A stretch of DNA of 64,000 nucleotides from Corallococcus sp. AB038B. Lineage in GTDB: Bacteria > Myxococcota > Myxococcia > Myxococcales > Myxococcaceae. Location: NCBI RefSeq assembly GCF_003668955.1, contig NZ_RAWO01000002.1, forward strand, positions 407,605 to 471,604. Reading direction: 5' to 3'. Numbering within the stretch: position 1 is the stretch's first letter; every line of letters begins with the position of its first letter. This document shows, piece after piece, positions 34,290 to 38,707 of this stretch. The notes under the pieces were generated by a model, which was given only the letters and a program-made list of their open reading frames with translations, had not been told where the DNA came from and made no database searches. Both the position numbers and the translations under genes were made by a program.

Positions 34290-35869
34290 TGCTCCCCGGG
34301 GTTCCCACGCTGCTTCTGATGCTGGCTGGCGCGGGAACCCCGCGCGGCCTCCCGCACGAGCGGGAGGCCGTGGTGGGGTTGGTCGCCGAGTCCGGGCGGC
34401 CCACCTCGCCTGGCGCGCAGGCGCCGCGCTATGAGCCCGAGGACACGGTGGAGTCCGTCGTGTCGCCGGGCGGGCGCTTCCGCATCCACTTCACCCGCCA
34501 GGGCACCCACGCCGTGCCGCCCGCGGACGCGGATGGCAGCGGCGTGCCCGACTTCGTGGAACTCGTCGGGCGCACCTACGAACGCGTGGCGACGTTCTAC
34601 GTGGACCTGGGCTTCCGCCTGCCGCCCGATGACACGAACCCCGCTGGGGACGACGGCGGCGACGGCCGCTTCGACGTGTACCTGGTGGACTTCGCGGGCA
34701 TTGGCGACGGCGCCTTCCGGCAGGAGACCTGTCTGGACGGCGTCACGCGCTGCACGGGCTTCATGCTCCAGGAGAACGACTTCACGGGCTACAACTACCC
34801 GTCCGACGCCGAGGCCGTGGAGATCCTGGCCAGCCACGAGTTCTTCCACGCGGTACAGGCCGCCTACCGGCCCGACCTGGGCGGCGTCGCCTCCGAGGGC
34901 ACCGCCGTCTGGGCCACCGAGCGCTTCGAGCCCGCGCTCGACGACCTGGAGCACTTCACCCGCGGCTACATGCTGACCCCGGACAGCACCCTGGTGCTGG
35001 ACCCCGCGGGGCCCGGCGTGACCTTCATCTACGGCGCGGGGCTCTTCTTCCAGTTCGTGGGCGAGCGCTACGGTGACGGCGCGCTCGTCGCGCTGCTGGA
35101 GGAGTCCGTGCGCCAGCCGGAGGCCCGCTGGCCGGTGCTGCTGGACACCTGTCTGCGCCGCGACTTCGCCTCCAGCTTCGACGCGGCCTTCGCCCTGTTC
35201 GCCACCTGGAACCTGGGCACCGGCCCGCGCGCGACGCCGGGGTTCGGCTACGCGCGAGGGGAGGGCTATGCACCGGTGGCGAAGACGGCGGCGGAGCTCC
35301 CCACCACGATCGATCGCGTGCGCGTCGCGGCGGCGGCCTCGCGGATCTTCGAGGTCCCCGGCGGCGCGTCCTTCGTGGGCGCGTCCTTCGAGCCCGAGCC
35401 GGGCATCGACCCGGCCACGGTGCACCTGGTCGTCGCGGCCGTCACGGATGACGCCGTGCTGCGGGTGGCGACCGTGGACGGGCCGAACGCACTGCGCACC
35501 CAGGTGGCCGCGGATGACGCCACGCGCGTGATGGTGGCGGTCGTGGACGGCCGGATGGAAGGCCTGGGCCGCTATGGCCGGCTGTGCATCGCGGCCACCG
35601 GCCAGGCTGCGTCCTGCGCGCCGCTCGATGCGACGGATGCGGGAACGGACGCCGGAACCGACGCTGGGACGTCCGATGCCGGCGCGGACGCAGGCACCGC
35701 CGATGCGGGGACCGTGGACGCGGGCAGGCCCGTGGATCCCATCGATGATCCGCGCACGCCCTCGGATGACGGTGGCTGCCAGGCCGCGGGTGGCCCCCTG
35801 TCCGGTGCGCTCATCGCGCTGTTGCTCGGCGGGGGCCTGCGGGCCCGGCGGCGTTCACGGGCGCGTTAG
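34289..35869 (+). CDS. Secreted HEXXH (zincin-like) protein with MYXO-CTERM sorting signal
   Basis: Signal peptide from internal Met (MLPGVPTLLLMLAGAG). HEFFH motif. TDAGT repeats near the C-terminus. Terminal GGCQAAGGPLSGALIALLLGGGLRARRRSRAR matches the MYXO-CTERM pattern (GC + hydrophobic + Arg-rich). Confidence 0.65.
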   Translation: MLPGVPTLLLMLAGAGTPRGLPHEREAVVGLVAESGRPTSPGAQAPRYEPEDTVESVVSPGGRFRIHFTRQGTHAVPPADADGSGVPDFVELVGRTYERVATFYVDLGFRLPPDDTNPAGDDGGDGRFDVYLVDFAGIGDGAFRQETCLDGVTRCTGFMLQENDFTGYNYPSDAEAVEILASHEFFHAVQAAYRPDLGGVASEGTAVWATERFEPALDDLEHFTRGYMLTPDSTLVLDPAGPGVTFIYGAGLFFQFVGERYGDGALVALLEESVRQPEARWPVLLDTCLRRDFASSFDAAFALFATWNLGTGPRATPGFGYARGEGYAPVAKTAAELPTTIDRVRVAAAASRIFEVPGGASFVGASFEPEPGIDPATVHLVVAAVTDDAVLRVATVDGPNALRTQVAADDATRVMVAVVDGRMEGLGRYGRLCIAATGQAASCAPLDATDAGTDAGTDAGTSDAGADAGTADAGTVDAGRPVDPIDDPRTPSDDGGCQAAGGPLSGALIALLLGGGLRARRRSRAR

Positions 35870-36900
35870 CGCTCGAACTCGTCGCACCCCGTCTCCTGCT
35901 TGGACGGGAAGGCGGACTTCTTCTCCTGGCGCACGTAGTCGTGGCTCTGGGAGAAGAGGTCCGGGCTGTTCACGGTCACGGTGCCCTTCGCGGCGTCGGC
36001 CGTCTTCCACTGGAGCGCCTCCGGCTTGCCGTCCGCGGCCGTGAGCCCCAACACCCAGGCCCCGGCGCCCTTGCCGGCCTCCACGGACGTCACCTTCATC
36101 GTCGTGGCCTCCTGGCCCAGCTGCACCTCCACCTCGCCCGTCGCGGGCTTGACGGTGAAGCTGCGCGTCGCGGCCGAGCAGGGCTTGAGCACCACGAAGC
36201 CTTTGCCCTGCCGCGTCAACTCCACCCACGTCCCCGCGAAGGGCTGGAGCTTGTCCGCGGCCACGGGAGCCTTCGCGGCTGTGGGCGCGCCTTCCGCCGC
36301 GCAGTCCAGGTCCTCGCGCTTGAGCAGCCCCGCCGTGGCCTTCTGGGGCCCCTGGAAGCGCGCGGCGAGGAAGTCCGGCTCCACCGGGTCGACGTAGGCC
36401 TCCACCGCGTCGCCGGACACCACGAACGCCTTGCGCGGCGTGTTGGCCGCGTCCGACGCGTGGAAGCCCGCCTTGGACACCTTCACCTTGCAGATGCTCA
36501 GCGGCTTGGCGGTGCTCCGGGCGAACGAGTCCTTGCCTGGGTAGCCGGCGCCGCAACAGGACGGTGACGGACCCGACTCCAGGACGAATTGCTTGGGATT
36601 GACGCGCAGCGTCCAGGCGTCTTCCTCACCCGCCTGATGAAGTGACCAATTCGTGACTGTCTTCTTCTGGACGACCAGGGCGCAATCGCAGGTGCCCGCG
36701 CTGCTGCCCTGCGGGAACGAGCCCGAGAAGTGCACGAGCGTCTCGTTGCTGCCCTCGACGATGGCGAGCGTCCCGCCCTTGTTTGAATAGACCCCCGTGA
36801 GTCCCTCGGACCCCTGAGCCGAGGCGTCCGGGACCGCGCCCGTGACGCAAATGGCAAACAGTAATGCCAAACTTTTGAATTCCGGTTGGATCCTGGACAT
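35866..36900 (-). CDS. Secreted hypothetical protein (signal peptide), lower-GC islet
   Basis: MSRIQPEFKSLALLFAICVTGAVPDASAQ signal. AAG/AAC-rich codon usage, unlike flanking genes. No recognisable domain. Confidence 0.6.
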   Translation of the reverse strand: MSRIQPEFKSLALLFAICVTGAVPDASAQGSEGLTGVYSNKGGTLAIVEGSNETLVHFSGSFPQGSSAGTCDCALVVQKKTVTNWSLHQAGEEDAWTLRVNPKQFVLESGPSPSCCGAGYPGKDSFARSTAKPLSICKVKVSKAGFHASDAANTPRKAFVVSGDAVEAYVDPVEPDFLAARFQGPQKATAGLLKREDLDCAAEGAPTAAKAPVAADKLQPFAGTWVELTRQGKGFVVLKPCSAATRSFTVKPATGEVEVQLGQEATTMKVTSVEAGKGAGAWVLGLTAADGKPEALQWKTADAAKGTVTVNSPDLFSQSHDYVRQEKKSAFPSKQETGCDEFER

Positions 36901-36988
36901 CCGACTGGTCCTCCTGGGCAGGTTCTTCAGTCTCAGCGGATCGATCCGCTGAAACTGAAGTTGCTGGAATCACTGGTTTCACACGATT

Positions 36989-38707
36989 GTGACTGGGAAT
37001 GCGAAACTGATCGCATTGCCTTTCGATAATCCGATCAATCCAAGCACGTCCGCGGCGCCTTTGGTCGCGGCCAGACATAGAGGGGTCTTCTCCGTGACCG
37101 TCTCCAACATCCGCGTCAATTCCGGCGATACGCTTTCCGGCCTCGCGAAGCGCTACAACACGACTGTTGACGCGCTGGCCAAGGCGAACAACATCAAGGA
37201 TCCGAACAAGATCCTGGCCGGCCAGACGCTGAAGGTGCAGGACGGTTTCGACACGAAGGGCACCAACAAGTCGAGCGCGGGGACGAAGACGTCGGGCGAC
37301 AGCTTCACGCAGTCCACGGACGGCGCGAAGGCGACCACGCCCGCCGCGAACACGAACTCCAGCAGCGCGACCAACGGGGAGCTGGGCGGGCTGAGCCGCA
37401 AGTACGAGGCGCGCGGCCCCGGCACCGTGTCCACGGGCAAGGGTGACAAGGGCGGCGTGTCCTACGGCTCCTACCAGTTCGCCTCCGCGAACGGGTCCGC
37501 GCAGTCGTTCGTCAACTCGCTGAAGAAGACGAACCCGGACTTCCACAAGGCGCTGTCGGGCAGCAAGCCGGGCACCGCGGAGTTCTCCGCCGCGTGGAAG
37601 CAGCTGGCCGCGAAGGACCCGAAGGGCTTCGACAAGGCGCAGCACGACTACATCAAGACCACGCACTACGACGCGGGCGCCGCCAACATCAAGAAGGCGA
37701 CGGGCATCGACCTGGACAAGCGCTCCGCGGCGCTGCGGGACGTGGCCTGGTCCACCTCCGTGCAGCACGGCCCGGGCAAGGCGGACGACATCTTCAAGAA
37801 GGCGCTCAACGGTCGCGACCCCGCGAAGGTGAGCGACGAGCAGCTCATCAAGGACATCTACGCCGAGCGCGGCCGCACCAACGCCAGCGGCACCCTGGTG
37901 CACTTCTCCGGCAGCTCCAAGGACGTGCAGAAGGGCGTGGCCAACCGCTTCAAGTCGGAGGCGAAGGACGCCCTCGCGATGCTGAAGCAGGAGAAGTCGG
38001 GCACCACGACGAAGCCGGCCAACACCAACACGGGCGTGGTTCCCCCGTCCGTGAACAACGGCTCGAAGCCGGGCACCACGGAAGGCAAGCCCACGACGCA
38101 GGGCACGAACACCTCCAAGCCCACCACGGAGGCGGCCCCCGCGAACACGGAGCAGGTGGCCCCGTCCAAGGACAAGCCTGCGGTGCACGTGAAGGTGCCG
38201 TACTACAGCCAGTTCGAGAACGGCCACGGCTACACCGCGAGCGACACGGCGTGCTTCAAGGCCGCGACGGCGATGGCGCGTGACTCCGGCGCGACCGTGC
38301 TGGGCCCGGACCGCCGCATCCAGGTGGGCAAGAGCGAGAACGGCGTCGGCGCGCTCAACGTGGACTCGAAGAAGGCCGCCGAGGGCCGCAGCTACATCGA
38401 CAAGCAGCTGGAGGCCGGCAAGCCGGTGGTCGTGGGCGTGAGCCACAAGGACGCGAGCTACAACGCGGACGGCCTCACGGACCACTTCGTGACCATCACG
38501 GGCCGCGGCGTCGACGACAAGGGCCGCACCTACTACACGTTCCACGACCCGGGCACGAAGAACGCCAGCACGGGCAAGGACACGAACCCGAACAACCGCT
38601 TCTACGTGGATGACAAGACCGGGAACATGTACCGCCCCGGCAAGGCCGCGAACGGCTACGTGACCGAGCGCCACTACGACGTGGCCATGGTGCGCATCAA
38701 CAAGTAG
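36989..38707 (+). CDS. LysM domain protein with central unknown domain and C-terminal peptidase C39-like (papain-fold) domain
   Basis: LysM: [47 protein letters not shown]-terminus: VPYYSQ...DTACFKAA (Cys) ...[25 protein letters not shown] (His), like Peptidase_C39_2/YvpB. No classical signal peptide. An alternative GTG start at 37094 with a GAGGGG RBS would place LysM at the extreme N-terminus. Confidence 0.65.

Follow-up and report, generated by a model that had tools for sequence, protein, structure and literature searches.

Among the effectors of type VI secretion systems (T6SS), TseP of Aeromonas dhakensis is reportedly a dual amidase–lysozyme. It is cited as a lysozyme-like type VI effector in PMC8668125 (ref. 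38). VgrG3 of Vibrio cholerae (PDB 4NOO and 4NSO), a proven type VI effector with a lysozyme-like C-terminus, is paired with the periplasmic immunity protein TsiV3, and BtaeB of Bacteroides fragilis, likewise a proven type VI effector, is paired with the immunity protein BtaiB (PDB 9JDD, 9JG8 and 9JG9; Li W et al., Cell Host Microbe 2025, PMID 41072405, cited in PMC13402684). In myxobacteria, a LysM toxin and a neighbouring immunity gene used against siblings are represented by TsxE/TsxI of Myxococcus xanthus (MXAN_5572/5571; PMC5801462). In this study, a high-GC stretch of 64 kb from Corallococcus sp. AB038B (contig NZ_RAWO01000002.1; GC 0.689), hereafter the window, was analysed with regard to two divergent genes, gene A and gene B, which are currently annotated as 'LysM domain-containing protein' and 'hypothetical protein'. 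We propose that this locus is probably a peptidoglycan-hydrolase toxin/immunity module for antagonism between bacteria. The pair most likely adds an uncharacterised member to a known kind of system, an ordinary type of bacterial weapon. An initial annotation had described the pair as a lower-GC islet encoding a LysM/C39-like peptidase and a secreted partner; it is partly supported, its observation being partly right and its preferred interpretation largely right.

Gene A combines a LysM module, a muramidase domain and a C-terminal cysteine peptidase, joined by two linkers (Table 1). Residues are numbered here on the 537-aa protein that begins at GTG 37094, and numbers on the 572-aa open reading frame (ORF) are higher by 35 (for example, Glu105 equals E140). 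The N-terminal LysM module recognised in the initial annotation was confirmed by a match to PF01476 above the gathering score, and its LysM matches in the PDB include LytE and Ecp6. The adjoining region, at first described as a Lys/Thr/Asn-rich middle part of ~250 aa, is not a spacer but a folded VgrG3-like muramidase with a low-complexity linker on either side. The muramidase domain matched PF21277 with an E-value of 3.6e-53 (180.7 bits against a cutoff of 27, covering profile positions 1–182 of 183) and the C-terminal domain of V. cholerae VgrG3 (PDB 4noo_A and 4nso_A) with an E-value of 1.5e-29. It is thus a clear homologue of the VgrG3 lysozyme-like C-terminus, in which the acidic motifs are kept, and its ratio of non-synonymous to synonymous substitution rates (dN/dS) was 0.17–0.38. 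The putative catalytic acid Glu105 and base Asp118 align with two residues that we take to be the catalytic residues of VgrG3. Both linkers are of low complexity, are predicted to be flexible and, judged from dN/dS values of about 1, appear to evolve nearly neutrally; a second LysM occupies the position of linker 1 in some other genera. No VgrG gp27/gp5 spike is fused to gene A, in which the profile search gave just LysM, at the very start, and PF21277. Among the relatives of gene A, the proteins P0050 and P0055 and the product of L036 7001..8557 have permuted modules, with LysM followed by a C39_2-like peptidase and then by a VgrG3-like muramidase, which indicates that lytic modules have been shuffled within the family. 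In a metagenome-assembled genome of Chloroflexota, a VgrG3-like muramidase is fused to a WXG100 type VII secretion domain (P0083).

The C-terminal 175 residues of gene A matched the solved protein 9JDD_A/9JG8_C by phmmer (E 3.5e-21 against 9jdd_A). The title of PDB entry 9JDD names a T6SS effector–immunity complex of the BtaeB C-terminal domain (CTD) and BtaiB from B. fragilis, and its depositors label BtaeB 'Peptidase C39-like domain-containing'; the letters 'ae' in BtaeB presumably denote 'amidase effector'. An AlphaFold2 model of the peptidase domain, built on 106 diverse homologues, reached a predicted local distance difference test (pLDDT) score of 95.5. With this model, Foldseek returned 9jdd_A with an E-value of 4.4e-14, template modelling scores of 0.73/0.71 and 29% identity; this was the sole PDB match below 1e-3, and papain-clan peptidases followed with E > 1e-3. 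The similarity to the 617-aa chain 9jg8_C is restricted to chain residues 424–590, that is, to the CTD of BtaeB. The initial annotation had named a catalytic Cys/His dyad that could not be aligned as a ground for refutation. The dyad aligns with BtaeB and is conserved in the 106 homologues, and the putative nucleophile Cys387 is the single cysteine of the 537-aa protein. The effector reading is preferred because each of the two catalytic domains of gene A has a homologue among the toxin domains of proven type VI effectors, VgrG3 and BtaeB, respectively; the option of a peptidoglycan-targeting antibacterial effector, raised at the outset, is supported on these grounds (4NOO/4NSO and 9JDD_A). 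In addition to the BtaeB-like peptidase, gene A has a LysM module and a second enzyme. Gene A and TseP share the concept of one polypeptide directed against the glycan strands as well as the peptides of peptidoglycan; however, the catalytic domains of TseP are unrelated to those of gene A, TseP has no LysM, and its VgrG-dependent delivery is proven.

An exhaustive search gave 1,198 representative homologues of the peptidase domain. In the 106 homologues sampled, the identifiable partner domains were nearly all cell-wall binding or lytic, including PG_binding_1 (28 proteins), LysM (nine), PG_binding_3, SH3_3 and PG_binding_2 among the former, and Amidase_2, M15_4, Hydrolase_2 and VanY among the latter. 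A hydrophobic N-terminus was present in two and absent in 103 of 105 homologues. As far as domain partners and N-termini tell, the family consists of enzymes that target the wall and bypass Sec. Three peptidase-only proteins (P0065, P0156 and P0166) have a recurring 'GADVDALxxL' N-terminus, for which the search gave no family. In Myxococcus sp. RHSTA-1-4, a 481-aa protein with SLT, LysM and Peptidase_C39_2 domains is encoded just downstream of the pair (L025 11887..13332); it follows a similar idea to that of gene A with a different glycan-cutting enzyme.

The family relationships of the peptidase bear on a different explanation, in which gene A encodes a C39-type peptidase that processes bacteriocins or leader peptides and lies on a horizontally acquired, lower-GC islet. 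The papain fold assumed for the C-terminus stood, with Gln, Cys, His and Asp conserved and the model of high confidence, and the order of Cys and His is common to gene A and the papain-like families Peptidase_C39_2 and BtrH_N (PF13529 and PF14399). The assignment to Pfam Peptidase_C39_2 itself did not stand; the partial match scored 18.3 bits against the Pfam cutoff of 24, and the similarity to both families, with E-values of 0.004–0.04, is below their cutoffs. A role in leader-peptide processing has no counterpart in gene A or its context: no ABC-transporter (ATP-binding cassette) fusion occurred among the 106 sampled homologues, whose usual partners are cell-wall modules (PG_binding_1, LysM, PG_binding_3, SH3_3 and cell-wall hydrolase domains), and no ABC-transporter, bacteriocin or leader-peptide gene lies nearby. 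The islet part of this explanation draws on the genomic contexts, which differ by genus, on the presence/absence polymorphism of the pair and on the low GC content of the region between the genes. However, the locus is syntenic throughout Corallococcus, and its GC content at third codon positions (GC3) and synonymous codon use are native. GC3 was 0.95 in gene A and 0.91 in gene B, compared with 0.81–0.97 in the neighbouring genes, and the leave-one-out synonymous-codon scores of +0.11 and − 0.07, respectively, were both within one standard deviation of the window mean (− 0.02, standard deviation 0.13). The AAG/AAC/ACG-rich usage that had been regarded as atypical is not borne out, and the preferred codons across the window include AAG (97%), AAC (92%) and ACG (53%). 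Whole-gene GC was 0.670 and 0.680 against 0.689 in the window, and the 193 bp between the genes are the sole low-GC stretch (GC 0.55). The small GC drop is due to this intergenic region and to the Lys/Asn/Thr-rich protein of gene A (K 9.8%, N 6.5%, T 9.6%, few Arg or Leu; GC at first codon positions (GC1) 0.55). Codon statistics of the pair were thus indistinguishable from those of the surrounding genes by both measures, the outcome that the initial annotation had itself named as refuting, neither base composition nor codon usage marks a horizontally acquired genomic islet, and the framing as foreign DNA was abandoned. Native codons, a sub-threshold C39_2 match and the lack of an exporter nearby largely refute the bacteriocin-processing or islet explanation, which we regard as extremely improbable.

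Gene B encodes a protein with a Sec-type N-terminus that has an invariant A28 and a conserved 'ASAQ' motif; pLDDT is below 50 for residues 1–32. The earlier description of this gene product as secreted therefore holds, given the N-termini of 16 of 17 family members and the conserved cleavage site. The AlphaFold2 model (pLDDT 81) has two all-beta domains with a disordered linker between them, and the protein, which has eight conserved cysteines in total, probably folds with disulfides. The 21–23 homologues are all myxobacterial, and a profile search did not widen the family (23 proteins). Gene B had no match in Pfam, NCBIfam or PADLOC, and no significant match in the PDB as a single sequence or as a profile; for both proteins, the NCBIfam and defence-system libraries gave nothing beyond sub-threshold LysM matches. 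The best structural match of gene B is BtaiB, the immunity protein of BtaeB, and with the whole two-domain model Foldseek gave weak lipocalin (Tp0751) and OspA-like matches. The gene A peptidase and gene B thus each have their best structural match in one of two chains of a single crystal (9JDD). The part that resembles BtaiB is probably domain 2. This modelled likeness is supportive, not conclusive, since the fold is common; no sequence similarity of gene B to BtaiB was detectable, and BtaiB has 125 aa, whereas gene B has 344 aa in two domains. Domains 1 and 2 have no mutual similarity and give no sign of internal duplication in gene B. One of the homologues with domain 1 only (P0141) is an orphan, and the other (P0140) adjoins a gene A homologue that runs off the contig end. 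The gene next to a muramidase-only relative of gene A is unrelated to gene B.

The immunity reading is preferred because gene B is Sec-exported, has its best structural match in BtaiB and is linked to gene A across six genera; the proposal that the paired protein is an immunity partner is supported accordingly. A divergent gene B lies directly upstream of gene A in 19 of 20 full-length loci of the species-representative genome collection and, with Stigmatella added, in 20 of 21. The pair is kept in Corallococcus, Cystobacter, Archangium, Myxococcus, Pyxidicoccus and Stigmatella, and the flanking genes are wholly different in each genus. In Corallococcus sp. RDP092CA, the pair is missing by a clean deletion of 2,520 bp (L023 ~8002–8004), which corresponds to 35991..38510 of the window. 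The deletion took the 5′ part of each gene along with the intergenic region and left the last ~41 codons of gene B and ~65 codons of gene A, so the pair is dispensable. The dN/dS ratios (0.31–0.62 in gene A and 0.25–0.34 in gene B) indicate that both genes are under purifying selection and evolve faster than the neighbouring MVP, LysR and SDR genes (0.04–0.19). In its linkage, deletion and fast evolution, the pair behaves like an accessory conflict module and not like a wall enzyme with a housekeeping role. A signal-less candidate toxin, a signal-bearing partner and adjacent, co-inherited genes, as expected of a periplasm-acting toxin/immunity pair, were all found here, and the two genes were deleted together in L023. 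VgrG3/TsiV3 follow the same logic, with a toxin that has no signal peptide and an immunity protein in the periplasm.

The same observations were considered against a role on the producer itself, in which gene A would encode an endolysin-like autolysin for developmental lysis, for remodelling of the spore coat or cortex, or as a relic of prophage lysis, and gene B an unrelated periplasmic protein. The absence of a signal, a wall-binding module and two lytic domains are the classic layout of endolysins and autolysins, and weak LysM matches to the sporulation and division proteins SafA and DipM were obtained, all far below cutoffs. Yet the strict linkage to gene B across genera and its resemblance to BtaiB would be left unexplained, the pair is deleted in one Corallococcus strain, and no holin or phage gene is found nearby, whether in the window or around the pair in other genera. 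A tblastn search of 50,697 phage records with the peptidase domain gave no match, and IMG/VR contigs contained no relative of it, which rules against a phage origin of this domain. An autolysin is thus very unlikely.

The route of gene A out of the cell is the point on which the proposed toxin/immunity module is most open to challenge. The initial annotation saw no obvious Sec signal in gene A, and this was confirmed in the family: a Sec-type hydrophobic N-terminus was found in none of 15 gene A orthologues, compared with 16 of 17 members of the gene B family, which served as a positive control. Several observations weigh against the module as proposed. No secretion-system genes occur in the window or, for three other genera, in the 10 kb around the pair, and neither the window nor the flanking regions examined in four genera contain vgrG, hcp, paar or adaptor genes. 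Gene A carries none of the PAAR, VgrG, Rhs, MIX and FIX markers. BtaeB is loaded onto the spike with the adaptor BtapC through an N-terminal region of 420 residues, to which nothing in gene A is similar, and the gene A locus differs from that of BtaeB/BtaiB in having no adaptor, VgrG or PAAR genes nearby. TsxE, for comparison, has an amidohydrolase-2 domain, is encoded downstream of vgrG2 and depends on the T6SS (PMC5801462), whereas gene A has other enzymes and no vgrG linkage. The two genes are divergent and do not form one operon, which is atypical of toxin/immunity pairs. The exception to the linkage is a second gene A paralogue in Myxococcus sp. RHSTA-1-4 (L018 7968..9428), which has no gene B beside it, and other single-enzyme relatives of gene A have no obvious partner gene beside them. 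Finally, C. exiguus and Stigmatella erecta both carry the pair, and the type VI genes of their strains DSM 14696T and DSM 16858T, respectively, are described as 'highly degenerate or absent' (PMC10196010). Precedents in favour of the module come from M. xanthus, in which the type VI effector TsxE carries a LysM (PMC5801462) and effector–immunity loci are scattered and located away from the type VI cluster (PMC10433427). Type VI delivery of gene A is suggested by homology; the genomic context gives it no support, and it is doubtful in C. exiguus. Candidate Sec-independent routes are Kil/Tad-like or T3SS* contact machinery, vesicles and lysis.

Two further explanations concern the delivery of gene A. 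In the first, gene A would be a predatory lysin, and not a toxin aimed at kin, that is released non-classically, by vesicles, by Kil/Tad-like or T3SS* machinery or by partial cell lysis, and digests prey walls, and gene B would be a protector of the producer wall during export, a chaperone or a partner. Myxobacteria secrete many bacteriolytic enzymes, and the effectors of Kil/T3SS* are unknown (PMC10433427). Another Corallococcus LysM-lysozyme, C25GH19C, likewise has no signal peptide and is predicted to be secreted non-classically (PMC10875029). The gene A protein has an isoelectric point of 9.6, basic like many lysins, and the pair is under purifying selection in spite of the type VI degeneracy reported for C. 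exiguus and S. erecta (PMC10196010). However, a dedicated periplasmic, BtaiB-like partner suits immunity better than a chaperone role, and the 120 best matches of gene A include no full-length orthologue of M. xanthus, the species that served to define Kil and T3SS*. We consider a predatory lysin unlikely. In the second explanation, the two 'type VI' toxin domains and the immunity gene would be kept and delivered by another Sec-independent, contact-dependent machine, such as the prey-killing apparatus of Kil (Tad-like)/T3SS*, because the pair is kept in myxobacteria that reportedly have no working T6SS. This is also held to be unlikely; if true, the pair would rank among the first candidate sets of cargo and immunity protein for the Kil/T3SS* machinery.

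For the toxin/immunity module that we prefer, we propose the following mechanism. The gene A toxin would reach the periplasm of the target cell by a Sec-independent route, where its LysM would dock on the glycan strands. The VgrG3-type muramidase (Glu105/Asp118) would cut the sugar backbone and the BtaeB-type cysteine peptidase (Gln373/Cys387/His464/Asp485) the peptide stems or cross-links, with two flexible linkers tethering the modules. Gene B, exported by Sec to the periplasm of the producer, would bind and block the toxin that arrives from sister cells or is in transit during export, and at least one of its domains may act on the toxin as BtaiB acts on BtaeB.

The gene calls at this locus were revised at one point. 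Both genes are real and form two divergent ORFs; the closest database protein to gene A is from C. exiguus (99% identity) and the best match of gene B has 98% identity, and these protein matches suggest that the window DNA belongs to Corallococcus exiguus or a very near relative. The start of gene A was placed at GTG 37094, since ATG is found at the equivalent position in seven of nine Corallococcus loci, indels occur in the stretch upstream in the loci compared, and the orthologues of other genera begin at this residue. The alternative GTG start, preceded by a GAGGGG ribosome-binding site, that had been offered in the initial annotation is thereby borne out, with LysM at the extreme N-terminus of the protein. 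The extension 36989..37093 listed by the ORF finder is, on this comparison, noncoding and spurious. The length of the region between the genes is 176–194 bp across genera. Within it, the GATAAT hexamer may be a promoter element; 'CGAT[AG]AT' is conserved in Corallococcus, Cystobacter, Myxococcus and Stigmatella, and a consensus scan for sigma-70 gave no canonical promoter site. The intergenic core (36940..37030) has two GAAACTGA repeats and the palindrome TCACACGATTGTGA in the window sequence, and the palindrome reads TGACACGATTGTGA in most other Corallococcus loci. These repeats and the palindrome may be an operator common to both divergent genes.

Table 1. Positions in the window of gene A, gene B, their parts and the region between them
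Feature	Position	Strand	Remarks
Gene B, ORF	35866..36900	-	344 aa; divergent from gene A
Gene B domain 2, residues 211–340, lipocalin-like	35881..36270	-	Helix, ~nine-stranded beta-barrel, helix
Gene B domain 1, residues 33–200, beta-rich, six conserved Cys	36301..36804	-	Alone in two truncated homologues
Gene B signal peptide, residues 1–28, predicted cleavage between ASA and Q	36817..36900	-	Hydrophobic N-terminus in 16/17 family members
Divergent intergenic control region	36901..37093	.	GC 0.55, 193 bp; ~90-bp core nearly identical across Corallococcus
Gene A as listed by ORF finder	36989..38707	+	572 aa
GATAAT, -10-like hexamer	37025..37030	+	~64 nt upstream of GTG start; inside spurious ORF extension; unique in window
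Gene A, corrected coding sequence (LysM, muramidase and cysteine-peptidase toxin candidate)	37094..38707	+	537 aa plus stop
LysM peptidoglycan-binding module	37112..37237	+	PF01476, E 2.4e-15, 56.7 bits vs cutoff 20.9; residues 42–83 of 572-aa ORF
Linker 1, Thr/Ser/Asn/Lys/Gly-rich	37244..37381	+	Variable length, indels; dN/dS 0.5–1.6
VgrG3-C-like muramidase domain (chitosanase/lysozyme-like)	37382..37960	+	PF21277 (T6SS_VgrG3-like_C)
Glu105 codon (E140), putative catalytic acid, 'KYEA'	37406..37408	+	Aligns with VgrG3 'KYES'; at least 90% conserved in family
Asp118 codon (D153), putative catalytic base, 'GDKGG'	37445..37447	+	Aligns with VgrG3 'GDYGG'; at least 90% conserved
Linker 2, Thr/Pro/Asn/Lys-rich	37994..38179	+	~20 to 65 residues by genus; dN/dS 0.6–2.6
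Papain-fold cysteine peptidase domain, BtaeB-CTD-like	38180..38704	+	C-terminal 175 residues; distantly C39_2/BtrH-like
Gln373 codon (Q408), putative oxyanion-hole residue, 'YYSQF'	38210..38212	+	At least 90% conserved, 106 homologues
Cys387 codon (C422), putative nucleophile	38252..38254	+	At least 90% conserved; aligns with BtaeB 'ACYKA'
His464 codon (H499), putative general base, 'TDHF'	38483..38485	+	Invariant in 106 sequences; BtaeB has identical 'TDHF'
Asp485 codon (D520), putative third triad residue, 'FHDPGT'	38546..38548	+	At least 90% conserved; invariant Pro next

Several neighbouring genes in the window were recorded as well. The eukaryotic major vault protein (MVP) has a complete bacterial homologue at 30893..33169 (+) with Vault, Vault_2/3/4 and MVP_shoulder domains, and this homologue is 93–98% conserved and syntenic in all Corallococcus loci examined. 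Gene B is adjoined by a gene pair at 33255..35869 (+) for an HmuY-like protein that contains TDAGT(T/E) repeats and an HExxH metalloprotease of the MXAN_6640 family whose tail is MYXO-CTERM-like; this pair is present in some Corallococcus species and not in the loci L001, L005, L006 and L007. On the other side, a homologue of biopterin-dependent aromatic amino acid hydroxylases (550 aa, best Pfam stretch at residues 44–174) is encoded at 38814..40466 (-), and a large share of this protein seems to have no domain assignment. The valyl-tRNA synthetase at 25122..28616 (+) has a C-terminal tail of ~110 residues that matches the histone-H1-like HC2 family. Two ORFs of 1,023 and 1,297 aa at 772..3843 (-) and 4159..8052 (-) have GC at second codon positions above GC1 (0.65 vs 0.53 and 0.67 vs 0.50), unlike other genes, and may be of unusual composition or wrong-frame artefacts.

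For myxobacterial biology, the pair is a concrete and testable toxin/immunity candidate whose conservation spans at least six genera. Lysins that join two activities and come with a natural inhibitor may also be of practical use as antibacterial enzymes. The toxin fold that was recently solved for BtaeB is extended from gut Bacteroides to soil predators, in a family of ~1,200 representative sequences. The presence of type VI-type toxin domains in hosts whose T6SS is reportedly degenerate raises the question of how such toxins exit the cell, which bears on the effectors of contact-dependent predation.

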